Source: a virus (lineage: Duplodnaviria; Heunggongvirae; Uroviricota; Caudoviricetes). From it: a stretch of 33,174 nt of DNA. The stretch lies in IMG/VR virus record IMGVR_UViG_2526164596_000016, one strand, 5' to 3'. The notes under the pieces are model-generated. The model was not told the DNA's origin and made no database searches. It saw only the letters and a program-made list of their open reading frames with translations. Below are positions 5,977 through 32,189 of this stretch, in pieces. A program made the position numbers and the translations under genes. The first letter of the stretch is position 1; each line of letters begins with the position of its first letter.

Positions 5977-6921
5977 ATGCCAACAGTAGTTTCACTTTTT
6001 TCTGGATGCGGTGGTTCCGATGCGGGGGTTTTGAGAGCCGGCTTTGATGTGCTTATGGCCAACGATATCTTGCCGTATGCGCGCGATGTTTATATTGCCA
6101 ATCATCCAGAAACTGATTACATATTAGGCAATATTGCTGATGTAACTACTTTTCCTAAATCTGATTTGCTGGTAGGTTGTTATCCATGTCAGGGATTCAG
6201 CCAGGGTGGTGCGCGTAAAGCCGATCGAAAAATTAATACTCTTTATTTAGAGTTTGCTAGAGCTTTAAACAATATAAAGCCTAAAGCTTTTATAGTAGAA
6301 AACGTGTCTGGTATGGTTAGAAAAAATTTTGAGCATTTGTTATCTGACCAGATCAGGGTTTTTACTGAAGCAGGTTATACTGTTTCCGCAAAAGTTTTAA
6401 ATGCGGCTGAATATGGAGTAGCGCAGGAAAGAAAAAGAATATTTATCGTAGGAATCCGTAATGATTTCAAAGTTAAGTACGAGTTCCCTCAGCCAACTCA
6501 TGGGCCAGCAACTGGCGTCAACTATGTTACTATTAAAGATGCTATAGGGCATTTACCTGAATGGCCAGAAGGTGAATTTTATGATATGGGATTCCATTGG
6601 TATTATATGTCTCGCAATCGTCGCCAGGATTGGGATCAAATTTCAAAGACAATAGTTGCTAATGCAAGGCATATGCCGTTGCATCCTGTCAGTCCTCCGA
6701 TGGAGAAAGTAAGAACTGATGAATGGAGATTTGTTGAGGATCGGAGAGCTCGCAGATTCAGTTTTCGAGAGGCAGCACTATTACAAGGGTTTGAGGATCT
6801 AGTGTTTCCAGAAACAAATGCTGCAAGTCTTGGCATGAAATACACGGTGGTTGGTAATGCAGTGCCTCCGCCGCTTTTTGAAGCTGTAACGAAGGCATTG
6901 CCAATAGAATTATGGGATTGA
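5977..6921 (+). CDS. DNA (cytosine-5)-methyltransferase, Dcm-like
   Basis: 314-aa ORF with C5-MTase motifs in canonical order: FSGCGG (motif I, AdoMet), GCYPCQGFS (motif IV, catalytic Cys), ENV (VI), QERKRIFIVG (VIII), RRFSFREAALLQGF (IX), VGNAVPPPLF (X). Strong RBS. Confidence 0.85.
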   Translation: MPTVVSLFSGCGGSDAGVLRAGFDVLMANDILPYARDVYIANHPETDYILGNIADVTTFPKSDLLVGCYPCQGFSQGGARKADRKINTLYLEFARALNNIKPKAFIVENVSGMVRKNFEHLLSDQIRVFTEAGYTVSAKVLNAAEYGVAQERKRIFIVGIRNDFKVKYEFPQPTHGPATGVNYVTIKDAIGHLPEWPEGEFYDMGFHWYYMSRNRRQDWDQISKTIVANARHMPLHPVSPPMEKVRTDEWRFVEDRRARRFSFREAALLQGFEDLVFPETNAASLGMKYTVVGNAVPPPLFEAVTKALPIELWD

Positions 6922-6928
6922 TAAGCTA

Positions 6929-7924
6929 TTAAGGCTCTGGATTTAATGTATAAAGCTCTTCCTCAAATTCGCGAAACCAATCAGAGGTAGTTATCGCTTC
7001 CCATTGGTTTGCCTTATCAAGTAGATATATGATTCTCAACCTATCTAATAATAATACCCCAGCGGTTGCGTGTGTGCTTACCCATTCGCCATTTGCTTCC
7101 CGATAGAAAACAGGCGTGAACATTGTTGATGGATGCTGGAACGCAATTTGGAAATAGGTGGTCAGTTTTAACACGTTAGCCTCTAATGTTTTGCTTGGCC
7201 ACCCTGTTTCTTGTGCACCACATTGACCAAGAATTCCATAGTTGCTAGTTTGACCATCAGGAAATTCCACTGTAGCAATTAGGTCAAACCCGGCATCACC
7301 AGATGTGGGAGCTCTATTTATTTCCCTTGTGTTTAAACTACAAACTCCAAGATCTTTTCCTAAAGTTTGTAGAGCTGTCCGAAGATTTGTTCCATAATAA
7401 TTTTGCCTATCATCGGAGTTAGCATCAAAAATTCTTACGGTGCCATGTGCAGGTAAGAGAGAAATCATTGCTACTTTACATACTCTGGCAAAGCTCTTTG
7501 CCCAACGTTGTGCTGCTCCTTTAATCGACTTAAAGGATCTAAGTCTAGAGCAGCAAAGAAGAAAAACATATATTCGTTGTTGTTGGTTTAGATTTTCTTT
7601 AATAATTATCTCATCACCTGAAATTATAAATGGATATATTTTGCCAAGAGCACTTTCTCTATATTCGAGTTGTGTCCAAACATCTTCGAGTTGCTCTTCA
7701 AAACGATCATTTCTCTCAGCGTCTCCATTAATTTCTTCTTCAGAATTACATTCTTCATCAATTTCTTCAACGCTTGTTATGCCGAATTTTCTTACTGAAT
7801 CTAAATCATTTTTATGTAGTGAGTTACGTCCGGTATAATTAATTACCGTGAGTAACTCGGCTAAATCTGCAAACAAATGAGGAGAGTTGGGATGCATAAC
7901 TCCTACTTCAAAAGTCATCATCAC
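6929..7924 (-). CDS. Hypothetical protein (331 aa) with acidic N-terminal region; candidate effector or nuclease partner
   Basis: ORF in track; GTG/ATG start cluster (GAGGTGATGATGACT) overlaps the upstream frame stop, suggesting translational coupling; converges on the MTase with a 7-bp gap. No motif recognised. Confidence 0.6.
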   Translation of the reverse strand: MMMTFEVGVMHPNSPHLFADLAELLTVINYTGRNSLHKNDLDSVRKFGITSVEEIDEECNSEEEINGDAERNDRFEEQLEDVWTQLEYRESALGKIYPFIISGDEIIIKENLNQQQRIYVFLLCCSRLRSFKSIKGAAQRWAKSFARVCKVAMISLLPAHGTVRIFDANSDDRQNYYGTNLRTALQTLGKDLGVCSLNTREINRAPTSGDAGFDLIATVEFPDGQTSNYGILGQCGAQETGWPSKTLEANVLKLTTYFQIAFQHPSTMFTPVFYREANGEWVSTHATAGVLLLDRLRIIYLLDKANQWEAITTSDWFREFEEELYTLNPEP

Positions 7925-8438
7925 CTCTGCTATTTTTCTCTGCTATTTCAGAACCTATAAGCTTAATATGTTTATTGATTCTTCGTGCTACTTCATGGGC
8001 CTGTCTATCATACTCTACCGTGGCAACCATGCCTGCTGCATCTATCAAAGCTGCTTCAACTTGATAAAGTAACTGGAGAAAGTCCTTAGTAATATCAGAT
8101 GTCAATTGATAGGCAACTGCGAGTGGAGCCCCCATTCGGAATTGCTCCAATGCCTTAGGGCTACTTACAACAGCAGCTAGTTCTCTTAAATTACGTGATT
8201 CTCCTACACGAGTTTTTTTATCCTCGCCTTTTTTATATAACCATTCAGTTAGTTCTTTTATTTCTTTGTTCTTTAAACTCTTAGAATTGATGATAGGATG
8301 ACTTGGTATTGTGTCTCCATCGTCTTCGATTGAAACTCCGACAAACTGGCCTAACCGCTCATCAGCAAGTGCTGTTGATAATACTGAAAATTTAATCGTT
8401 TCTTCATCTAGCTTTTCAATACCATAAAAATCATTTTT
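7908..8438 (-). CDS. Open frame continuing the ParB-like gene after a -1 shift (C-terminal extension or frameshifted fragment)
   Basis: Hand translation: the frame is open from stop TAA (8439-8441) down to 7908 but has no ATG/GTG/TTG before 8150; an extra A in the A7 run (plus-strand T7 at 8434-8440) would fuse it to the ParB-like ORF. Confidence 0.35.
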   Translation of the reverse strand, partial: KNDFYGIEKLDEETIKFSVLSTALADERLGQFVGVSIEDDGDTIPSHPIINSKSLKNKEIKELTEWLYKKGEDKKTRVGESRNLRELAAVVSSPKALEQFRMGAPLAVAYQLTSDITKDFLQLLYQVEAALIDAAGMVATVEYDRQAHEVARRINKHIKLIGSEIAEKNSRGDDDF

Positions 8439-9028
8439 TTAATGATTTCATACACCGCTAAAGCGTCTAGGTTACGCTTGATATGATCCCTACGACTGCC
8501 AATAGCTCTGGCAACCTCATAGTAGCGTAGCATTGGATCCAGATTTGCATTGGTATAATCAAAAAGCTGTTTAATATATCGAGCTTTTGATAAGGGTTCC
8601 CATTGTTTGACACCAGTAATATGTCTGAAACCAAGGTACGGAAGAATCTCTTCTCTTGTTTGGCGCTCAATGACAGGAACACGATCGACCGTATGTTTTG
8701 CATTTGATGCAATTTCTCGTAGTCGAGCACTTGGATTTTCACATAGTGTCGGATCGCGTAATAATTTGACCGCGGATAGGCGACGGTTTCCTTCAACTAC
8801 AATGTACTTCCCCGGCGCTCCACTATCAGGAATGACAATCAATGGTTCTCCAGGGAAAAAACCATTTTCCGCAATAGCACTCATTAGGTCTTCGATAGAT
8901 GTTGAGGTTGCTATGTAGTTAATCATTCCCAATTGGTCACGAGACACGCCTTCAGGAAGTCTTGGGTTTTCTGTGTCAAGTTCCAAATCATCTAGCGGAA
9001 CATAAAGTATTTCTGAATCAGCAATCAT
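8408..9028 (-). CDS. ParB/Srx-like nuclease-domain protein (N-terminal part)
   Basis: Start taken at MIADSEILYVPLDD (ATG 9028, SD GGAG 6 nt upstream). Contains LELDTENPR and YIVVEGNRRLSAVKLL, the hallmark GxRR arginine motif of the ParB N-terminal fold. Terminates just after an A7 run. Confidence 0.7.
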   Translation of the reverse strand: MIADSEILYVPLDDLELDTENPRLPEGVSRDQLGMINYIATSTSIEDLMSAIAENGFFPGEPLIVIPDSGAPGKYIVVEGNRRLSAVKLLRDPTLCENPSARLREIASNAKHTVDRVPVIERQTREEILPYLGFRHITGVKQWEPLSKARYIKQLFDYTNANLDPMLRYYEVARAIGSRRDHIKRNLDALAVYEIIKKMIFMVLKS

Positions 9029-9075
9029 CTGGATCTCCGTTGAACATGTCCACGAGAAGGAGCACAAAGTTATTT

Positions 9076-9104
9076 CATAACATGCAATATACTCATTCTG
9101 TAGC
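9076..9104 (-). promoter_or_regulatory. Candidate sigma70 promoter for the leftward cargo operon: -35 TTCATT (plus 9099-9104), 17-bp spacer, -10 TATATT (plus 9076-9081)
   Basis: Read directly on the minus strand, about 50 nt upstream of the ParB-like start. Confidence 0.35.
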
Positions 9105-9254
9105 CATAAATGAATTATTCATGATGTAAGATTCGCGTTGATGTGCGTGAATTCGCAAGTAATTATACAGCAAGGTTTGATTGGGTATCGTCAGCACCAG
9201 TGCGGTTCCAACGTACTCATGCAACTGCATTAAAACCGCCCCATGAAGTGGGCG

Positions 9255-9273
9255 GGCGAGGCGGGGAAAGCAC
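9255..9273. other. cos cohesive-end sequence GGCGAGGCGGGGAAAGCAC
   Basis: 19-mer read directly; matches the P2/186/P4 cohesive end as I recall it, at the expected position upstream of Q. Confidence 0.6.
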
Positions 9274-9415
9274 TGCGCGCTGGCGGTGGTGCTGATTTTA
9301 TTTTTTCAGCGTCTGAGCGCGTCGTGATGGCGTTTAGAGTCTGCGCCGGGGCGTTGGTGTGTCTGCGGGGTGTTTTGTGCGGTGGTGAGCGTGTGAGGGT
9401 GTGATGACGGGGTGT

Positions 9416-9437
9416 AAAAAAGCCGCCCGCAGGCGGC
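9416..9437 (-). terminator. Rho-independent terminator downstream of Q (stem GCCGCC/GGCGGC, loop CGCA, then a T run on the minus strand)
   Basis: Read directly: plus-strand AAAAAA (9416-9421) followed by GCCGCCCGCAGGCGGC. Confidence 0.45.
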
Positions 9438-9442
9438 GATGT

Positions 9443-10477
9443 TCAGCCGTTGTCAGTGTCCAGTGAGTAGTTTTTAAAGCGGATGACCTCCTGACCGAGC
9501 CAGCCGTTTATTTCCCGAATCCTGTCCTGTAACGGGATAAGCTCATTGCGGACAAAGACCTTTGCCACTTTCTCAATATCACCCAGCGACCCGACGTTCT
9601 CCGGCTTGCCGCCCATCAACTGAAAGGGGATGCGGTGCGCGTCCAGCAGGTCAGCGGCGCTGGCTTTTTTGATATTAAAAAAATCGTCTTTCGTCGCCAC
9701 TTCACTGAGCGGGATAATTTTAATGCCGTCAGCTTTCCCCTGCGGGGCATAGAGAAACAGATTTTTAAAGTTATTGCGGCCTTTCGACTTAACCATGTTT
9801 TCGCGAAGCATTTCGATATCGTTGCGATCCTGCACGGCATCAGTGACGTACATGATGTATCCGGCATGTGCGCCGTTTTCGTAATACTTGCGGCGGAACA
9901 GCGTGGCCGACTCATTCAGCCAGGCAGAATTAAGGGCGCTGAGATATTCCGGCAGGCCGTACAGCTCCTGATTAATATCCGGCTCCAGCAGGTGAAACAC
10001 GGAGCCGGGCGTGAAAGGTGTCGGCTCGTTGAAGGACGGCACCCACCAGTAAACATCCTCTTCCACACCACGGCGGGTATATTTTGCCGGTGAGGTTTCC
10101 AGTCTGATGACCTTACCGGTGGTGCTGTAACGCTTTTCCAGAAACGCATTACCGAACACCAGAAAATCCAGCACAAAGCGGCTGAAATCCTGCTGGGAAA
10201 GCCACGGATGCGGGATAAATGTCGAGGCCAGAATATTACGTTTGACGTAAATCGGTGAGCTGTGATGCACGGCAGCACGCAGGCTTTTTGCCAGACCGGT
10301 AAAGCTGATCGGTGGCTCATACCATCTGCCGTTACTGATGCACTCGACGTAATCCAGAATGTCACGGCGGTCGAGTACCGGCACCGGCTCACCAAAGGTG
10401 AATGCTTCCATTTTCGGGGCGCTGGCGGTCATTGTTTTTGCCGCAGGTTGCGGTGTTTTCCCTTTTTTCTTGCTCAT
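9443..10477 (-). CDS. Q: Portal protein, P2 gpQ-like
   Basis: 344-aa ORF; N-terminus MSKKKGKTPQPAAKTMTASAPKMEAFTFGEP and length match recalled P2 Q; first gene leftward from cos. Confidence 0.9.
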   Translation of the reverse strand: MSKKKGKTPQPAAKTMTASAPKMEAFTFGEPVPVLDRRDILDYVECISNGRWYEPPISFTGLAKSLRAAVHHSSPIYVKRNILASTFIPHPWLSQQDFSRFVLDFLVFGNAFLEKRYSTTGKVIRLETSPAKYTRRGVEEDVYWWVPSFNEPTPFTPGSVFHLLEPDINQELYGLPEYLSALNSAWLNESATLFRRKYYENGAHAGYIMYVTDAVQDRNDIEMLRENMVKSKGRNNFKNLFLYAPQGKADGIKIIPLSEVATKDDFFNIKKASAADLLDAHRIPFQLMGGKPENVGSLGDIEKVAKVFVRNELIPLQDRIREINGWLGQEVIRFKNYSLDTDNG

Positions 10478-16764: not shown

Positions 16765-17190
16765 ATGAAGAAATTATCCCTTTCACTGATGCTGAACGTG
16801 TCGCTGGTGATGATGCTGGCACTGTCCCTGATTTACCCGCAGAGCGTGGCCGTCAGTTTTGTCGCCGCCTGGGCGATTCTGGCGACGGTTATCTGTGTGG
16901 TTGCCGGTGGTGTCGGCGTGTATGCCACCGAGTATGTACTTGAACGCTACGGGCGGGAGCTGCCGCCGGAATCGCTGGCCGTGAAGATTGTCACGTCGCT
17001 GTTTTTGCAGCCGGTGCCGTGGCGCAGACGGGCGGCGGCTCTGGTGGTGATGGTGGCGACGTTTATCTCGCTGGTCGCTGCCGGGTGGATTTTTACTGCG
17101 CTGATTTACCTCGTGGCGTCGGTGTTCTTCCGGCTGATACGTACGGCCTGTCGTCAGCGTTTTGAGGGGCGGGAACCATGTCAAAGCTGA
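16765..17190 (+). CDS. lysA: Lysis regulatory membrane protein LysA
   Basis: 141-aa strongly hydrophobic ORF after K. Confidence 0.7.
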   Translation: MKKLSLSLMLNVSLVMMLALSLIYPQSVAVSFVAAWAILATVICVVAGGVGVYATEYVLERYGRELPPESLAVKIVTSLFLQPVPWRRRAAALVVMVATFISLVAAGWIFTALIYLVASVFFRLIRTACRQRFEGREPCQS

Positions 17191-17648
17191 TGATTGTGCT
17201 GGTCGTGTTGTTATCGCTGGCGGTGGCCGGTCTGTTTCTGGCGAAGCATGAAAACGCCAGCCTGCGCACCTCGCTGGACAGGGCGAACAACGTCGCCAGC
17301 GGGCAGCAGACGACCATCACCATGCTGAAAAATCAGCTTCATGTTGCCCTCACCAGAGCAGACAAAAACGAGCTGGCGCAGGTGGCACTGCGTCAGGAAC
17401 TGGAGAACGCGGCGAAGCGTGAAGCACAGCGCGAGAAAACCATCACGAGGTTACTGAATGAAAACGAAGATTTTCGCCGCTGGTACGGCGCTGACCTGCC
17501 TGATGCTGTGCGCCGGTTGCACCAGCGCCCCGCCTGCACCGACGCCAGTGATTGTCCCCAACGCCTGCCCGAAAGTGAGTCTTTGCCCGATGCCGGGCAG
17601 CGCCCCGGAGACGAACGGCGATTTAAGTGCCGATATCCGGCAGCTTGA
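17178..17648 (+). CDS. lysB: i-spanin (Rz-like) LysB
   Basis: N-terminal transmembrane anchor MSKLMIVLVVLLSLAVAGLFLA followed by a coiled-coil-like region; the exact 3' end is uncertain. Confidence 0.7.
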   Translation: MSKLMIVLVVLLSLAVAGLFLAKHENASLRTSLDRANNVASGQQTTITMLKNQLHVALTRADKNELAQVALRQELENAAKREAQREKTITRLLNENEDFRRWYGADLPDAVRRLHQRPACTDASDCPQRLPESESLPDAGQRPGDERRFKCRYPAA

Positions 17649-17748: not shown

Positions 17749-18178
17749 TGCCGTCACGGTGCTGAAAACCAGTCCCGAGATGCTGCGGATATTCGTGGAT
17801 AACGGGAGTATTGCCTCCACACTGGCGGCGTCGCTGTCATTTGAAAAGCGTTACACGCTCAATGTCATTGTGACCGACTTTACCGGTGATTTTGACCTGC
17901 TCATCGTGCCGGTGCTGGCGTGGCTGCGGGAAAATCAGCCCGACATCATGACCACCGACGAAGGCCAGAAAAAGGGCTTCACGTTTTATGCAGACATCAA
18001 CAATGACAGCAGCTTTGATATCAGCATCAGCCTGATGCTGACCGAGCGCACGCTGGTCAGTGAGGTTGACGGTGCGCTGCATGTGAAGAATATCCCGGAA
18101 CCCACGCCGCCGGAGCCGGTCACCCGCCCGGTGGAGCTTTATATCAATGGCGAACTGGTGAGCAAGTGGGATGAATGA
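17711..18178 (+). CDS. R: Tail completion protein R
   Basis: 155-aa ORF; position and size match P2 R. Confidence 0.8.
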   Translation: MLKPDSLRRALTDAVTVLKTSPEMLRIFVDNGSIASTLAASLSFEKRYTLNVIVTDFTGDFDLLIVPVLAWLRENQPDIMTTDEGQKKGFTFYADINNDSSFDISISLMLTERTLVSEVDGALHVKNIPEPTPPEPVTRPVELYINGELVSKWDE

Positions 18179-18623
18179 GTTTAAGCGTTTTGAAGACCGG
18201 CTGACCGGACTGACTGAATCGCTGTCACCGTCAGGGCGTCGGCGACTGAGCGCCGAACTGGCGAAACGTCTGCGGCAGAGTCAGCAACGTCGGGTGATGG
18301 CTCAGAAAGCCCCGGACGGCACACCCTACGCGCCACGCCAGCAGCAGAGCGCCAGAAAAAAGACTGGTCGTGTTAAGCGAAAAATGTTTGCGAAACTTAT
18401 CACCAGTCGTTTTTTGCATATCCGCGCCAGCCCGGAACAGGCATCAATGGAGTTTTACGGCGGGAAGTCACCGAAAATCGCCAGCGTGCATCAGTTCGGT
18501 CTGTCGGAAGAAACCCGGAAAGACGGTAAGAAAATTGATTATCCGGCGCGTCCTCTGCTCGGCTTTACCTGTGAGGATGTGCAGATGATTGAAGAGATTA
18601 TCCTGGCTCACCTTGAGCGTTAG
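18171..18623 (+). CDS. S: Tail completion protein S
   Basis: 150-aa ORF; position and size match P2 S. Confidence 0.8.
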   Translation: MNEFKRFEDRLTGLTESLSPSGRRRLSAELAKRLRQSQQRRVMAQKAPDGTPYAPRQQQSARKKTGRVKRKMFAKLITSRFLHIRASPEQASMEFYGGKSPKIASVHQFGLSEETRKDGKKIDYPARPLLGFTCEDVQMIEEIILAHLER

Positions 18624-18653
18624 TTTTATCCAGTCAGAGGCTGATGCGCAATT

Positions 18654-18688
18654 AAACATTGAGCGGCCATGCTGGTCGCTCAATGTTT
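18654..18688. terminator. Bidirectional hairpin: perfect 12-bp stem AAACATTGAGCG / CGCTCAATGTTT with 11-nt loop
   Basis: Read directly between convergent S (+) and the moron gene (-). Confidence 0.55.
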
Positions 18689-18694
18689 AGAGGT

Positions 18695-19252
18695 TTATGA
18701 GTGATTTTTATTTGATGCTTTGTATTCTAAAACCTTCTTATTGGCGTAAAAGAATTTTGTATATGACAGGAATATAACCAGACCTGAAGTGAAATAGACG
18801 AGGGATAGTATTAATAATGCTTTTTTGTGACTGTTATTATCTTTAATCTCCTGACTTAACCATTCGGAGTCCTCCTCGTTTAGCTGTAAGAGCTTATTGC
18901 AGGCGATCTCAGGAAGTGTGTCTTTTATAAATACGTTTTGCAGTCTCTTGCAATCGGCAAGGCTATAAGTTTTATTAAATTCAACTGCTTTATTTTTGAA
19001 GGATAAAAGAACTTTGTCACTATAAACATAGTACATCATGTTTTTATATGGTATGCCTATGGCATCCCTTACTATAACGGATTGTTCGTTGTGTATGTAA
19101 CATGCGAGAAGAATGTAAAAAATACTGGCCAGAATTACAATTATTGTTTTAATTATGTGTGGTGGTTTTGTTATGTCACCCCAGATGCGAGTAAGGAAAA
19201 AATACGATGTTTTTAGTTTTCCATCAATCAGTCCCTGCTGTATCATTCTCAC
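18695..19252 (-). CDS. Moron: small membrane protein (two predicted transmembrane helices), unknown function
   Basis: 185-aa ORF antisense to the tail operon in a visibly AT-rich insert between S and V; hydrophobic segments IIKTIIVILASIFYILLACYI and ALLILSLVYFTSGLVIFLSY. Start codon uncertain. Confidence 0.6.
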   Translation of the reverse strand: MRMIQQGLIDGKLKTSYFFLTRIWGDITKPPHIIKTIIVILASIFYILLACYIHNEQSVIVRDAIGIPYKNMMYYVYSDKVLLSFKNKAVEFNKTYSLADCKRLQNVFIKDTLPEIACNKLLQLNEEDSEWLSQEIKDNNSHKKALLILSLVYFTSGLVIFLSYTKFFYANKKVLEYKASNKNHS

Positions 19253-19561
19253 ATTTTCAATGCCTGATACATTGATTCCGTTAATTATTTTAAATAGTTG
19301 AATGTCGCGCCACTCGCGGTCAAGTCTTTTTAATTTTTGTCTGAATATCCAAAATTGAAATAATGTGCAATAAGCCTCATAAGGTTACTTTTACCAAAGC
19401 TAAAAAATGCTAATACTGCAAAGCTACAAAGGAAAAAACGATTAGCCCCCACACATTAGTCACATTATAGCTGACCATTACGCTCTCCTTGAATGTTGTC
19501 TGGTAGTTCTACAAATGAATCCAGATAGCATAACTTTTATATATTGTGCAATCTCACATGC

Positions 19562-20197
19562 ATGAACACTCTCGCAAATATTCAGGAACTCGCGCGCGCA
19601 CTGCGCAACATGATTCGTACCGGCCTAGTCGTCGAAACCGACCTTAACGCCGGTCGCTGCCGTGTGCAGACCGGCGGCATGTGCACTGACTGGCTTCAGT
19701 GGCTGACCCATCGTGCCGGTCGTTCGCGCACATGGTGGGCACCTTCCGTGGGGGAGCAGGTGCTGATTCTGGCCGTGGGCGGTGAACTCGACACGGCGTT
19801 CGTTCTGCCGGGGATTTATTCCGGCGATAACCCCTCGCCGTCTGTGTCGGCGGATGCCCTGCATATCCGTTTCCCTGACGGGGCGGTGATTGAGTATGAA
19901 CCCGAAACCAGTGCACTCACGGTAAGCGGAATTAAAACGGCCAGCGTGACGGCTTCTGATTCTGTTACTGCCACGGTACCGGTGGTCACGGTGAAAGCGT
20001 CAACCCGTGTCACCCTGGACACACCGGAAGTGGTCTGCACTAACAAACTGACTACCGGCACGCTGGAAGTGCAGAAGGGCGGGACGATGCGCGGCAACAT
20101 TGAACACACCGGCGGTGAACTCTCATCAAACGGTAAGGTACTGCATACCCATAAACACCCCGGCGACAGCGGCGGCACAACCGGGGGACCTCTATGA
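19562..20197 (+). CDS. V: Baseplate spike protein V
   Basis: ORF 19544-20197; start taken at MNTLANIQELARAL giving 211 aa. Confidence 0.85.
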   Translation: MNTLANIQELARALRNMIRTGLVVETDLNAGRCRVQTGGMCTDWLQWLTHRAGRSRTWWAPSVGEQVLILAVGGELDTAFVLPGIYSGDNPSPSVSADALHIRFPDGAVIEYEPETSALTVSGIKTASVTASDSVTATVPVVTVKASTRVTLDTPEVVCTNKLTTGTLEVQKGGTMRGNIEHTGGELSSNGKVLHTHKHPGDSGGTTGGPL

Positions 20198-22058: not shown

Positions 22059-23347
22059 CAGTGAAATACTACGCCATTCTGACTAATCAGGGCGCAGCAC
22101 GGCTGGCTAACGCGACGATGCTCGGCAGTAAGCTGAATCTGACGCAAATGGCCGTTGGTGATGCGAATGGTGTCTTGCCGACACCAGACCCGGCACAGAC
22201 AAAACTGATTAACCAGAAACGCATTGCGCCGCTGAATCTTCTGAGTGTTGACCCGAACAACCAGAGCCAGATTATTGCGGAGCAAATCATCCCTGAGAAC
22301 GAGGGCGGATTCTGGATCCGTGAGATTGGGCTTTATGATGAAGAAGGCGTACTCATTGCGGTGGCGAACTGCCCGGAAACGTACAAACCGCAGTTGCAGG
22401 AAGGCAGTGGTCGTACCCAGACTATCCGCATGATTCTGGTTGTCACGAATACCGAAGCTATTACGCTGAAAATCGACCCGTCGGTGGTACTGGCGACCCG
22501 TAAATACGTGGATGATGAAGTCCTGGAATTAAGGCTGTATGTGGATGACCAGATGAGAAACCACATTGCCGCACAGGATCCTCATACCCAGTATGCACAG
22601 AAACATAATCCGACATTTACCGGAGAACCAAAAGCGCCGACGCCTGCCGCAGGAAATAACACCACGCGGATTGCGACCACTGAGTTTGTTCAGGCCGCTA
22701 TTACCGCTCTGATTAACGGTGCGCCAGCCACACTGGACACACTGAAAGAAATTGCCGCGGCCATTAACAATGACCCGAAATTCAGCACCACCATTAACAA
22801 TGCGCTGGCAGGTAAACAACCGCTGGACAATACGCTGACTCATTTGAGTGGAAAGGATGTTGCCGGTCTTCTCGTATACCTTGGTTTGGGAGAAGGTTCG
22901 GCATTACCCGTTGGTGTGCCTGTTCCGTGGCCTTCAGCCACACCGCCTACTGGCTGGCTGAAATGCAACGGTGCGGCTTTTTCTGCTGAAGAATACCCGG
23001 AACTGGCAAAGGTTTATCCGACAAATAAATTGCCTGATTTACGCGGTGAATTTATTCGTGGCTGGGATGACGGACGTGGAGTGGATGCCGGGCGACAATT
23101 ATTATCTTCACAGGGGGATGCAATAAGAAATATTGAGGGATTCGCAGATGGCGGGATCGGTATGTCTTTTGATGCAATCAGAGGGGCTTTTTATGATGCA
23201 GGAACACGATCTGCGAGAATGCCGAATAACACAACTGATATAGGCAAAACCGATGACCTTGGATTCGACGCCTCTCGTGTCGTGCCAACAGCTAATGAAA
23301 ACCGTCCACGTAACATCGCCTTTAATTATATTGTGAGGGCTGCATAA
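22055..23347 (+). CDS. H: Tail fibre protein H (constant N-terminal part plus the currently expressed variable C-terminus)
   Basis: 430-aa ORF; N-terminal YAILTNQGAARLANA...MAVGDANG...GGFWIREIGLYDEEGVLIAVAN typical of P2 H / Mu S-type fibres; crosses the hix-like site at 22881. Confidence 0.85.
   Translation: MTVKYYAILTNQGAARLANATMLGSKLNLTQMAVGDANGVLPTPDPAQTKLINQKRIAPLNLLSVDPNNQSQIIAEQIIPENEGGFWIREIGLYDEEGVLIAVANCPETYKPQLQEGSGRTQTIRMILVVTNTEAITLKIDPSVVLATRKYVDDEVLELRLYVDDQMRNHIAAQDPHTQYAQKHNPTFTGEPKAPTPAAGNNTTRIATTEFVQAAITALINGAPATLDTLKEIAAAINNDPKFSTTINNALAGKQPLDNTLTHLSGKDVAGLLVYLGLGEGSALPVGVPVPWPSATPPTGWLKCNGAAFSAEEYPELAKVYPTNKLPDLRGEFIRGWDDGRGVDAGRQLLSSQGDAIRNIEGFADGGIGMSFDAIRGAFYDAGTRSARMPNNTTDIGKTDDLGFDASRVVPTANENRPRNIAFNYIVRAA
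22869..22894. repeat. hix/gix-like inversion site (left): TTCTCGTATACC TT GGTTTGGGAGAA
   Basis: Read directly; 15-bp core TTGGTTTGGGAGAAG (22881-22895) recurs in inverted orientation at 24699-24713; half-sites resemble hixL as recalled. Confidence 0.6.
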
Positions 23348-23940
23348 TGAAACCTGTTTTTGATGAAAATGGGCTGACTACAGTGCCGGGTGATATGCGT
23401 TGTTTTTATTATGATGCAGTAACGTCTGAATATTCGGGCTGGTCTGATGAATATATTAATACTGGCGTAAGTATGCCCGCCTGTTCCACTGGTATTGACC
23501 CGGGCGAATACATTCCGGGGAAAGTGGCAGTATTTACGGGTAAGGGATGGAGCCATGAAGAAGACCACCGCAATGAGACTGTTTACTCAATCGAAAATGG
23601 CGTAGCTGTTACAGTGGATTATATCGGTGCCATCAAAGACGGTTATGTCACGCTTTCACCGTTAACGCCATACGATAAATGGGATGGTGAGAAATGGGTG
23701 ACAGATACTGAGGCACAGCATAGTGCCGCACTAGACGCGGCAGAAGCACAGCGCCAGTCGCTGATTGATGCTGCAATGGCTTCCATCAGTCTGATTCAAC
23801 TGAAATTACAGGCCGGGCGGAAGCTGACGCAGGCAGAAACAACCCGACTTAACGCCGTGCTGGATTATATTGACGCGGTGACGGTAACAGATACCAGCAC
23901 TGCGCCGGATGTCATCTGGCCTGAACTGCCGAAGGCGTAG
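23347..23940 (+). CDS. G: Tail fibre assembly chaperone G (expressed orientation)
   Basis: 197-aa ORF immediately after H with a conserved Tfa-type C-terminus (...DTSTAPDVIWPELPKA). Confidence 0.8.
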   Translation: MKPVFDENGLTTVPGDMRCFYYDAVTSEYSGWSDEYINTGVSMPACSTGIDPGEYIPGKVAVFTGKGWSHEEDHRNETVYSIENGVAVTVDYIGAIKDGYVTLSPLTPYDKWDGEKWVTDTEAQHSAALDAAEAQRQSLIDAAMASISLIQLKLQAGRKLTQAETTRLNAVLDYIDAVTVTDTSTAPDVIWPELPKA

Positions 23941-24352
23941 GCCATTCAATATCTGGCGCACCGGAAGTATCGACCAGTTCCAGTGTGTCCAGATAATCCA
24001 GCCACAAATTATATTGCGCCAGTTCCTCACCTTTCAGGCGACCAATCGCCGCTTTACCAGGCCATTGCTTACTGTTTATGTATTCGTTGACCTGATTAAT
24101 CAATTGCTGCTTTTCCAGTTCGGCTGCGGCAATTTGTTCCTCATGAGTTGGCGGTGGAATATCAATCCATGCAGGCATTCCGTCGATGACACCTCTGTAT
24201 TTTCCTTCTGGTGCTTCCTTCATAAATTCGGCGGCAACAGTGTCGTCAATTTCGATTCCATCATCGGGCCATTCGCCGGATTCCTGATAAGCGATTTTAA
24301 GCTCCACAGGGAAAAACGCATTTTTATCGGCACTGAAAATATATTTCTGCAT
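23912..24352 (-). CDS. Alternative tail fibre assembly chaperone (silent inverted copy)
   Basis: 146-aa minus-strand ORF with the same Tfa-type C-terminus (...DTSGAPDIEWPTPSAVQAR), converging on G. Confidence 0.75.
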   Translation of the reverse strand: MQKYIFSADKNAFFPVELKIAYQESGEWPDDGIEIDDTVAAEFMKEAPEGKYRGVIDGMPAWIDIPPPTHEEQIAAAELEKQQLINQVNEYINSKQWPGKAAIGRLKGEELAQYNLWLDYLDTLELVDTSGAPDIEWPTPSAVQAR

Positions 24353-24354
24353 TT

Positions 24355-24711
24355 CTACCGTCCTATCGAAATATAACTGAATCTGTATTGCTGTGAGATA
24401 TCACTGGTTGCCACACGCCACGCTGAATTACTGATATGTTCAAAATTTACAGACAAAACCTGCGGGGCAGGATTCGACGGGTCTGACTGAACGGCATCAG
24501 ACATAACACTGACTGAAACCATCGGCCGATTAGGGAATGGTATAGGGAAATGTCCACTGATAAAGCGGGTCGTGTTTCCTGAAAAAGTGCCAAACTGAAC
24601 AATATATCCACCTGGTAGCCTGAACCATCCCGAACCAGAAGCGAATGCTCCCATATCCGGTATCTGATTATCTCCTGTGCCCACATCCCTTTTCGCCGCT
24701 TCTCCCAAACC
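24355..24711 (-). CDS. Alternative tail fibre C-terminal cassette (promoterless; would fuse to H after inversion)
   Basis: Minus-strand frame begins ...VGLGEAAKRD..., sharing the GLGE junction with H; the crossover dinucleotide sits at codon positions 2-3 in both copies, so inversion keeps the frame. Confidence 0.7.
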   Translation of the reverse strand, partial: GLGEAAKRDVGTGDNQIPDMGAFASGSGWFRLPGGYIVQFGTFSGNTTRFISGHFPIPFPNRPMVSVSVMSDAVQSDPSNPAPQVLSVNFEHISNSAWRVATSDISQQYRFSYISIGR

Positions 24712-24725
24712 AACGTTTATGAAAA
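24700..24725. repeat. hix/gix-like inversion site (right), read on the minus strand as TTTTCATAAACG TT GGTTTGGGAGAA
   Basis: Read directly; right half identical to the left site, left half close to the hix half-site as recalled. Confidence 0.6.
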
Positions 24726-24780
24726 TGCAGAGATAACGGCTAACTGGCATCATCTCCGGTTTTTATTCAGGGGGATGATC

Positions 24781-25374
24781 ATGCTTATTGGCTATGTACG
24801 CGTGTCAACAAATGACCAGAACACGGAATTGCAGAGTAATGCGCTGGAGTGTGCAGGATGTGAGCTGATTTTTGAGGATAAAATCAGCGGCTCGAAGTCC
24901 GACAGGCCGGGGCTGAAAAAACTGCTCAGGACACTATCGGCAGGAGACACGTTGGTTGTCTGGAAGCTGGACAGACTGGGGCGCAGTATGCGGCATCTCG
25001 TTACGCTGATAGAAGAGTTGCGCCAGCGTGGTGTGAATTTCAGAAGCCTGACTGACAGTATTGATACCAGTACCCCAATGGGCCGTTTCTTTTTTCATGT
25101 CATGGGTGCCCTGGCTGAAATGGAGCGAGAACTCATTGTCGAGCGGACACGCGCAGGACTGGAAGCGGCCAGAGCCAAAGGTCGTATTGGTGGCAGACGA
25201 CCGAAACTCACCGCGAGAGAGTGGGAGCAGGCAGGACGGTTGCTGGCTGCGGGGGAATCTCGTCAACGTGTGGCGCTGATTTTTGATATTGGCCTGTCCA
25301 CGCTCTATAAAAAATTCCCCTCATCAGCGACAAAGAATAAATTGTGTCATCCCTTAGCCAACCGGGACAAATAG
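24781..25374 (+). CDS. Serine DNA invertase, Hin/Gin/Pin/Cin family
   Basis: MLIGYVRVSTNDQNTELQ...DTLVVWKLDRLGRS...GRFFFHVMGALAEMERELIVERT...GRIGGRRPKLT: the serine recombinase catalytic core and C-terminal HTH, strongly resembling Gin as recalled. Confidence 0.9.
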   Translation: MLIGYVRVSTNDQNTELQSNALECAGCELIFEDKISGSKSDRPGLKKLLRTLSAGDTLVVWKLDRLGRSMRHLVTLIEELRQRGVNFRSLTDSIDTSTPMGRFFFHVMGALAEMERELIVERTRAGLEAARAKGRIGGRRPKLTAREWEQAGRLLAAGESRQRVALIFDIGLSTLYKKFPSSATKNKLCHPLANRDK

Positions 25375-32163: not shown

Positions 32164-32189
32164 TCCCCCACATGATGTGGGGGTTTTTT
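32164..32189 (+). terminator. Hairpin CCCCCAC-ATGAT-GTGGGGG followed by T7; rho-independent terminator of uncertain (phage or host) origin
   Basis: Read directly upstream of fieF. Confidence 0.55.

Follow-up and report, generated by a model that had tools for sequence, protein, structure and literature searches.

The stretch of DNA analysed here, 33,174 nucleotides (nt) of a Caudoviricetes record (IMGVR_UViG_2526164596_000016; hereafter the window), is in its entirety a P2-type prophage, with the integrase gene at its start and the host gene fieF at its end. It is 99.98% identical to a prophage of Escherichia coli O111:H21 strain 15A, from which it differs at six positions. The locus under study is the gap between the late genes S and V, which holds an AT-rich module with a single antisense gene, orf30, encoding a predicted membrane protein. 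The G+C content of this gap is 33-38%, versus 55-62% in the flanking tail and late genes, and megablast aligns positions 18624-19561 with positions 9368-10307 of phage P2 (AF063097) at 99.3% DNA identity over 938/940 nt, the module measuring 938 bp in the window and 940 bp in intact copies. This AT-rich insert has long been on record as orf30 of P2: the P2 entry (AF063097) places here a putative terminator of the O operon, a gene described as "orf30, nonessential", the site at which the activator of the late promoter pV binds, and the start of V. An earlier note on this DNA, made from the letters alone, had remarked on the AT-richness of the gap relative to the tail genes, had named the orf30 locus of P2 for this place, and had read the insert as a moron with an antisense gene at a variable position of P2-type phages; on these points it proves correct, and the moron is a single gene acquired horizontally. 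The module consists of a hairpin beside S, the single antisense gene, and the pV/Ogr control region beside V (Table 1).

Table 1. Features of the S-V module and of its two borders (positions in the window; ORF, open reading frame; aa, amino acids; TM, transmembrane segment; a dot marks features without a strand)
Feature	Position	Strand	Basis
gpS (tail completion), which closes the O late operon of P2 and borders the module on the left (S stop at 18623)	18171..18623	+	ORF list; corresponds to P2 S, 8915-9367
AT-rich S-V module	18624..19561	.	G+C drop; identity to P2 9368-10307
Hairpin; "putative rho-independent terminator for O operon" in the P2 record	18653..18689	.	corresponds to P2 9397-9433
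185-aa ORF, residues 77-261 of Orf30 (TM2, predicted periplasmic Cys-pair domain, TM3, basic tail)	18695..19252	-	ORF list, intact translation
orf30, 261 aa when intact, here with two 1-nt deletions	18695..19478	-	alignment to P2 and strain 15A
T5 run (T6 in P2 and strain 15A), second frameshift in the reading direction of the gene	19334..19338	+	alignment
A6 run (A7 in P2 and strain 15A), first frameshift in the reading direction of the gene	19433..19438	+	alignment
orf30 start codon (19478-19476) and Shine-Dalgarno sequence AAGGAG (19490-19485), 6-nt spacer	19476..19490	-	sequence reading
Annotated Ogr activator-binding site of late promoter pV	19493..19520	+	P2 record; corresponds to P2 10239-10266
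gpV (baseplate spike), which opens the V late operon and borders the module on the right (V ATG at 19562)	19562..20197	+	ORF list and P2 map

In P2, orf30 runs on the minus strand from 9439 to 10224 (786 nt) and encodes 261 aa (AAD03281.1), and the intact allele of strain 15A matches phrog_2407 over positions 1-261 of 261 (E = 5.5e-149). The window copy does not form an uninterrupted ORF of 261 codons: 1-nt deletions at 19334 and 19433 spread the gene over three frames. The ORF that starts at the ATG at 19478 has only 22 codons, a second frame carries the middle part, and the final 185 codons fall in a third. The 185-aa minus-strand ORF singled out by the earlier note does exist, but it is a fragment of the 261-aa gene and covers just the C-terminal 71% of Orf30.

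All seven phage and prophage copies that we examined (7/7) are intact 786-nt ORFs, free of insertions and deletions, with 80-100% protein identity. The gene is carried by 464 of 5426 complete E. coli genomes (8.6%, about 1 in 12), always on the chromosome, and an exact 786-nt match in a single piece was found in 59 of 60 carriers, drawn as a spread sample of the 464 that spans 89-100% identity. For pairs with a synonymous substitution rate (dS) above 0.05, the ratio of nonsynonymous to synonymous rates (dN/dS) of orf30 is 0.33-0.56 (about 0.45), compared to 0.03-0.25 for the flanking S and V, and its dN exceeds that of either neighbour 5-10-fold. orf30 is a real coding gene under purifying selection, and its protein evolves fast.

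The break of the gene in the window is probably an assembly artefact, because all six differences from strain 15A resemble the error types of long reads. They consist of four 1-nt deletions, all in A/T homopolymers, and of two substitutions. The deletion frequency climbs with the length of the run (2/2 8-mers, 1/6 7-mers, 1/45 6-mers), while both substitutions (2286 and 23377) turn C to T in the CC of a CCAGC/GCTGG motif; such CC positions make up 1.0% of the sequence, and the probability that both fall there by chance is p ~1e-4. Long-read assemblies that have not been polished are classically prone to both of these systematic errors, the undercalling of homopolymers and the miscalling of bases where a motif is methylated. 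The opposite reading, that orf30 is here a true pseudogene, broken by two real slippage mutations in the course of prophage decay, can point to two independent frameshifts within one gene, and to the amber codon in a gpB-like gene and the frameshifted ParB-N-domain gene of the same window; were the frameshifts real, orf30 would be dead in this prophage. We regard this as rather unlikely, given that 4/4 of the insertions or deletions are single-nucleotide losses in A/T runs that depend on run length, that both substitutions share the CCAGC motif, and that the intact length is kept in nearly all of the sampled E. coli copies. As the window copy is split, most likely by homopolymer errors, an ORF-based reading of this sequence is misleading.

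The bidirectional hairpin that the earlier note had described on the S side stands in part. The structure at 18654-18688 has a perfect 12-bp stem, extends to ~16-18 pairs in RNA, and lies 5 nt beyond the stop codon of orf30, and its folding energy is -31.9 kcal/mol for the plus strand (z = -5.3) and -23.3 kcal/mol for the minus strand (z = -3.8). However, neither strand has a U-tract at the hairpin, and the terminator scan makes no call there; the label of bidirectional terminator is an assumption of the P2 annotators only. As for a hidden RNA gene, the Rfam matches stay far below the gathering score and are artefacts of the hairpin.

Family and predicted architecture of Orf30

The intact protein shows three hydrophobic helices, at about residues 9-28, 108-130 and 221-243, instead of the two counted on the fragment in the earlier note, whose description of a small membrane protein is otherwise upheld (three predicted TM helices, 261 aa). 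The architecture of the family comprises TM1 (~10-30), a basic loop of ~80 aa, TM2 (~108-130), a domain of ~90 aa, TM3 (~221-243) and a short basic tail. Loop 1 carries the conserved motif D-x-QLF[RK]-x2-NGINV-x4-DA, the ~90-aa domain two conserved cysteines (Cys177 and Cys194 in Orf30), and the tail a conserved N..K. Based on the net charges of loop 1 (+7), loop 2 (0) and the tail (+3), on the positive-inside rule and on hydropathy, we infer for Orf30 an N-out/C-in topology, in which loop 1 would be helical and cytoplasmic, the alpha/beta domain with the Cys pair would face the periplasm, and the tail would lie in the cytoplasm. The layout of three hydrophobic segments and the positive-inside charge pattern are predicted in all family members. 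Cys177 and Cys194 possibly form a predicted disulfide, which would fit a periplasmic placement.

Scans of Orf30 with Pfam, NCBIfam and PADLOC returned nothing useful, and its only match, phrog_2407, is itself labelled "unknown function", in line with the statement of the earlier note that the sequence names no function. An NCBIfam line to the Rickettsia family RP671a was discarded as noise (15 bits against a cut-off of 120), and a sequence-profile search of the PDB returned noise only. A likeness to the CorA/MRS2/ZntB channels was likewise rejected: identity is ~6%, there is no GMN motif, and the three spaced TMs differ from the C-terminal TM pair of CorA; moreover, nearly equal scores are reached by many long-helix proteins of other kinds, and the independent DUF6216 model (see below) does not recover CorA. 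A word-indexed homology search retrieved four clusters only, all of at least 80% identity. When 1.84 billion cluster representatives were searched exhaustively with HMMER, 35 matches were obtained, about 20 of them full-length (250-270 aa, 21-33% identity) and with the same three-TM layout.

Five of the 22 members of the Orf30 family match DUF6216 (PF19723). The protein from Sodalis (P0025) does so over its full length with 28.9 bits, above the gathering threshold of 27.3, a threshold against which P0030 and P0006 score 21.8 and 17.2 bits. When the Orf30 family is compared with BL21-type DUF6216 by hhalign, a 143-column alignment is obtained that runs from TM2 to TM3 (73% probability, E = 3e-5) and in which both cysteines are aligned. 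AlphaFold models of Orf30 and of the BL21 DUF6216 protein (predicted local distance difference test scores, pLDDT, of 82.8 and 72.0) agree in the succession of their secondary-structure elements, namely TM2, four strands, two short helices, and a long helix leading into TM3. The BL21 protein (WP_000115390.1), from a P2/186-like remnant of BL21(DE3), is also encoded at the same gpS-gpV locus, antisense and AT-rich, with a length of 264-268 aa for this type. Because of the profile match, the common order in the models and the shared locus, we count Orf30 as a probable, divergent member of a superfamily that contains DUF6216, and not as one of the Pfam family as now defined; Orf30 itself gives no match to the Pfam model even at E <= 10, and its pairwise BLAST comparison with the BL21 protein is insignificant (E = 0.034). 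The evidence supports the link only over the C-terminal two-thirds of the protein, whereas the N-terminal third differs, the cytoplasmic D-x-QLF[RK]..NGINV motif being specific to the Orf30 branch. The only data on DUF6216 concern the BL21 gene, which lies at a chromatin immunoprecipitation (ChIP) peak of H-NS and is up-regulated, hence de-repressed, in an hns/stpA double mutant (bioRxiv 10.64898/2026.09.05.749240).

In Yersinia, Pectobacterium, Sodalis and Cronobacter, the relatives of orf30 are all found between gpS and gpV, antisense to the late genes. The Orf30-like proteins of these four prophages are 22-27% identical to Orf30, next to identities with the window's proteins of 66-81% for gpV, 58-78% for gpR and 56-71% for gpW, and their genes have a G+C content of 30-35% versus 54-63% for V. 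The remnants that carry the DUF6216 genes of Serratia rubidaea and Klebsiella aerogenes have little left beyond gpS, a gpR fragment or ogr, and the BL21 DUF6216 element is a prophage remnant, too. Orf30-family genes on Serratia chromosomes (L012-L014) lie between an ASCH-domain gene and the ecotin gene, beside ybjL and with no recognisable prophage around them; ybjL also borders the P2-like prophage of BL21. These Serratia copies may be all that is left of a prophage, and retention of the gene after prophage decay suggests a benefit for the host. Orf30 belongs to a fast-diverging, Enterobacterales-wide family that is found almost only at the S-V position of P2-like prophages and their remnants.

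As a separate observation, gpS (18171-18623) is more diverged at four of the loci (45-49% identity; L096, L099, L101 and L102) than gpR or gpV, with the identities given above. Bordering the hotspot, gpS may itself occur as distinct types.

The S-V junction as a cargo hotspot

Prophages of E. albertii and E. ruysiae have a G+C-rich junction of 66 bp in place of the S-V module. The homology between them and the window breaks exactly at the S stop and the V ATG, the stop codon of gpS being the very point at which homology to these empty-junction prophages ends. The swapped unit is the whole intergenic stretch, pV control region included, and since the empty junction bears no similarity to the pV region of the window, this control region travels with the cargo. 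The comparison shows that the module is a self-contained, AT-rich, horizontally swapped unit that replaces a short S-V junction. The empty junctions (L016 2934-2999, L029 2934-2999) are themselves conserved, with 66-68 bp, and have a G+C-rich hairpin just upstream of the V ATG, GCCGCCGG-TATGA-CCCGGCGGC.

We surveyed the junction more widely using gpV as an anchor and one genome per species, in the best 80 loci of 199 confirmed relatives. Among these 80, the junction is empty in 22 (59-76 bp, G+C-rich) and filled in 37; the other 21 were left unresolved as gpS is not within 3 kb, which gives 59 resolved junctions. Filled junctions span 0.8-2.7 kb with a G+C content of 0.32-0.48, and usually hold one or two genes. 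Their 43 cargo ORFs of at least 150 aa fall into 32 clusters, the largest of which is the Orf30 family, present at 5 of the 37 filled loci and always antisense. Pfam domains of the defence type are found among the cargo (RelA_SpoT, GmrSD_N, HEPN_Apea, caspase, KAP NTPase, Mrr_cat, DUF4062), as are PADLOC matches (NsnA, PDC-S31, PDC-S33, PD-T4-2_A, SspE, REase_II, PDC-M36A), together with genes that are unrelated to defence or unclear in this respect: fimbrial, Hcp, ion-channel (Ion_trans_2) and 8xMP membrane proteins. The S-V junction is a third AT-rich, defence-rich cargo hotspot of P2-like phages.

Three variable loci, orf30, TO and Z/fun, have been described in P2-like phages (PMC3091744; PMC2771037). 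TO (old/tin) and Z/fun resemble the S-V site in that their cargo is AT-rich, antisense, swappable and rich in defence genes (PMC9122126; PMC3091744), while the S-V site is smaller, with its 0.8-2.7 kb, and often empty (22 of the 59 resolved junctions). The papers on defence hotspots centre on TO and Z/fun and not on orf30, and the S-V site was outside the scope of the analysis by Rousset (2022). A 2026 paper in Nucleic Acids Research gives no details of the defence hotspot that it places "within the tail genes" and "downstream of GpL". The S-V junction appears as a small, overlooked cargo site that is worth mining for defence genes.

Single loci of the survey may be mentioned in addition. L017 encodes a RelA_SpoT/PDC-S33 protein, L019 and L025 encode 8xMP "octameric membrane proteins", and in L057 a caspase-domain protein adjoins an Orf30-like gene. 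Many of the cargo ORFs at the S-V junction carry no annotation.

Possible functions of Orf30

orf30 is one of the last genes without a role in one of the best-studied temperate phages. The probable link to the DUF6216 superfamily, the conservation of position combined with extreme divergence, the retention in prophage remnants and the S-V hotspot are new here, and a bare "hypothetical protein" becomes directly testable with them: it has a family and one address, evolves fast, and outlives its prophage.

Our preferred reading, which we put forward as tentative and still on the doubtful side, is that Orf30 is a prophage-expressed, H-NS-silenced inner-membrane protein of superinfection exclusion or defence. 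Its synthesis would take place in the prophage state, when the late operons are not expressed, at a level probably kept low by H-NS on the AT-rich DNA, and it would act at the inner membrane to shield the lysogen against incoming phages. The most likely mode would be an interference with genome delivery across the envelope, of the kind of SieA, HK97 gp15 or T4 Imm; a membrane-damaging, abortive-infection mode would be the less likely one. What points to exclusion is the defence-rich hotspot, the fast evolution, the retention in remnants, the H-NS silencing of the BL21 relative, and a gene layout like that of sieA. Being antisense, orf30 can be transcribed at times when the late operons, which depend on Ogr, are shut down, and, as the annotated Ogr site lies 15 bp from the orf30 ATG, any promoter of the gene must overlap the pV control region. 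Superinfection exclusion or abortive infection had already been suggested in the earlier note, and this suggestion is now strengthened, by circumstantial evidence only.

The closest parallels are found in two other prophage genes. Like orf30, sieA of phage P22 is AT-rich (~35% G+C), antisense, located directly after a late gene, and encodes a three-TM protein that occurs in types less than 30% identical to each other. For SieA, the inner-membrane location, a mapped promoter and a block of DNA injection have been demonstrated, whereas Orf30 is likened to it in layout; SieA is moreover shorter (164 aa) and devoid of a large periplasmic domain, in contrast to the 261 aa of Orf30 with a predicted domain of ~90 aa. 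Orf30 may thus work like SieA, which is not to say that it belongs to the same family. YmfE (Kunado) of e14 is also prophage-encoded, H-NS-silenced and multi-TM (~234 aa), with reported protection against T5-like phages after adsorption, but it differs from Orf30 in having no homology to it and in residing in another prophage and at another locus.

Several results weigh against a role in exclusion or defence. No family among the PADLOC-DB 2.0 models matches Orf30 at E <= 10, nothing among the viral structures of BFVD does so at E <= 0.001, the fold comparisons gave no informative match, and there is no homology to P22 SieA (hhalign probability 0.3%) or to YmfE/Kunado (0.1%). The connection to DUF6216 is transitive, through intermediate sequences. 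For a sigma-70 promoter of orf30 we found no convincing match (at best 8/12 positions, with a 19-nt spacer), nor did we find RNA-seq or other transcript data for orf30 in P2 lysogens, so that expression in the lysogen is assumed. The P2 literature calls orf30 only "nonessential" or "unknown" (PMC3091744; PMC2771037). Decades of work on P2 have brought no report of a phenotype for it, and the known exclusion phenotypes of P2 map to old, tin and fun(Z). Finally, guilt by association with the hotspot is a weak argument, as fimbrial, Hcp and ion-channel genes are found there as well.

Three other functions were weighed against exclusion, all of them less probable in our view. The foremost is that of a lysogenic-conversion factor of the envelope unrelated to defence (stress tolerance, colonisation or surface properties) that pays for the carriage of the prophage. 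The persistence of the gene in decayed prophages and in 8.6% of complete E. coli genomes would agree with it, as would the predicted periplasmic domain with its conserved Cys pair and the fimbrial and Hcp genes at the hotspot; yet an identity of 22-27% beside neighbours at 66-81%, and a dN/dS of ~0.45, speak for an arms race rather than for an envelope role of the housekeeping type, and the annotated neighbours in the hotspot are mostly of the defence type. We therefore hold such a factor to be unlikely, though still the best placed of the three. An abortive-infection effector, in which Orf30 would oligomerise into a pore of the inner membrane that is opened by infection, so that the cell depolarises and dies, is a degree less likely again. 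It would be in keeping with the membrane proteins (8xMP, Ion_trans_2) carried by other S-V junctions and with the H-NS silencing of the BL21 relative, which fits a possibly toxic product, but the module has no partner gene that could act as a sensor, and the resemblance to CorA channels fails on the grounds given above (~6% identity, no GMN motif, a different TM arrangement, and similar scores for other long-helix proteins).

The last alternative, which we consider quite improbable, is an accessory of the lytic cycle, acting in lysis timing, in baseplate or tail assembly at the membrane, or in genome delivery, and expressed late from the pV region. orf30 constantly adjoins V in divergent orientation, and the short distance of 15 bp between the Ogr site and its ATG is reminiscent of pP/pO, a divergent pair served by one Ogr site; in addition, the N-terminal TM of the BL21 relative faintly matches a holin family (E = 0.037). 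Against this stand the annotation of the gene as nonessential by those who described P2, the 22 empty junctions among the 59 resolved ones, the absence of orf30 from WPhi and L-413C (PMC2771037), its survival in remnants that have lost the morphogenetic genes, and its orientation antisense to both late operons. A variant in which orf30 is activated by Ogr as a late gene from the shared pV site, in the manner of pP/pO, was rejected as unlikely, as the symmetric start would fall ~27 nt inside the ORF.

Returning to exclusion, a wider proposal would unite Orf30 and DUF6216 as an unrecognised, Enterobacterales-wide family of single-gene anti-phage proteins of the inner membrane, the signature of the third hotspot, diversified to ~20% identity by an arms race, silenced by H-NS and retained by the host after prophage decay. 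We advance it with slightly more reserve than the proposal for Orf30 itself.

Other variable positions of the prophage

The remaining differences from strain 15A affect the following sites. The substitution at 2286 changes CAG to TAG, so that a gpB-like replication protein of 166 residues is truncated at residue 122. At 8434, the loss of one T from a T8 run frameshifts the ParB-N-terminal-domain gene of the TO locus, and another T8-to-T7 deletion, at 32184, falls in non-coding DNA of the attR region, with ogr on one side and fieF of the host on the other. The pair of C-to-T changes resembles either miscalling at a methylated motif or the deamination of 5-methylcytosine. In the window, the TO (old/tin) hotspot holds a DNA cytosine methyltransferase (5977-6921, plus strand), a hypothetical protein of 331 aa (6929-7924, minus strand) and the ParB-N-domain protein (~7908-9028, minus strand); the methyltransferase is a candidate source of the CCAGC modification suggested by the two substitutions.

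The Z/fun position (23347-25374) is occupied by an invertible tail-fibre cassette instead of fun(Z). The cassette comprises genes for tail-fibre assembly, which occur in either orientation, as well as a recombinase (24775-25374) and a fragment resembling gp53. The lysB ORF (17178-17648) encodes 156 aa compared to 141 aa in P2, and its counterpart in strain 15A is an (incomplete) pseudogene in RefSeq. The prophage is inserted between cpxP and fieF.

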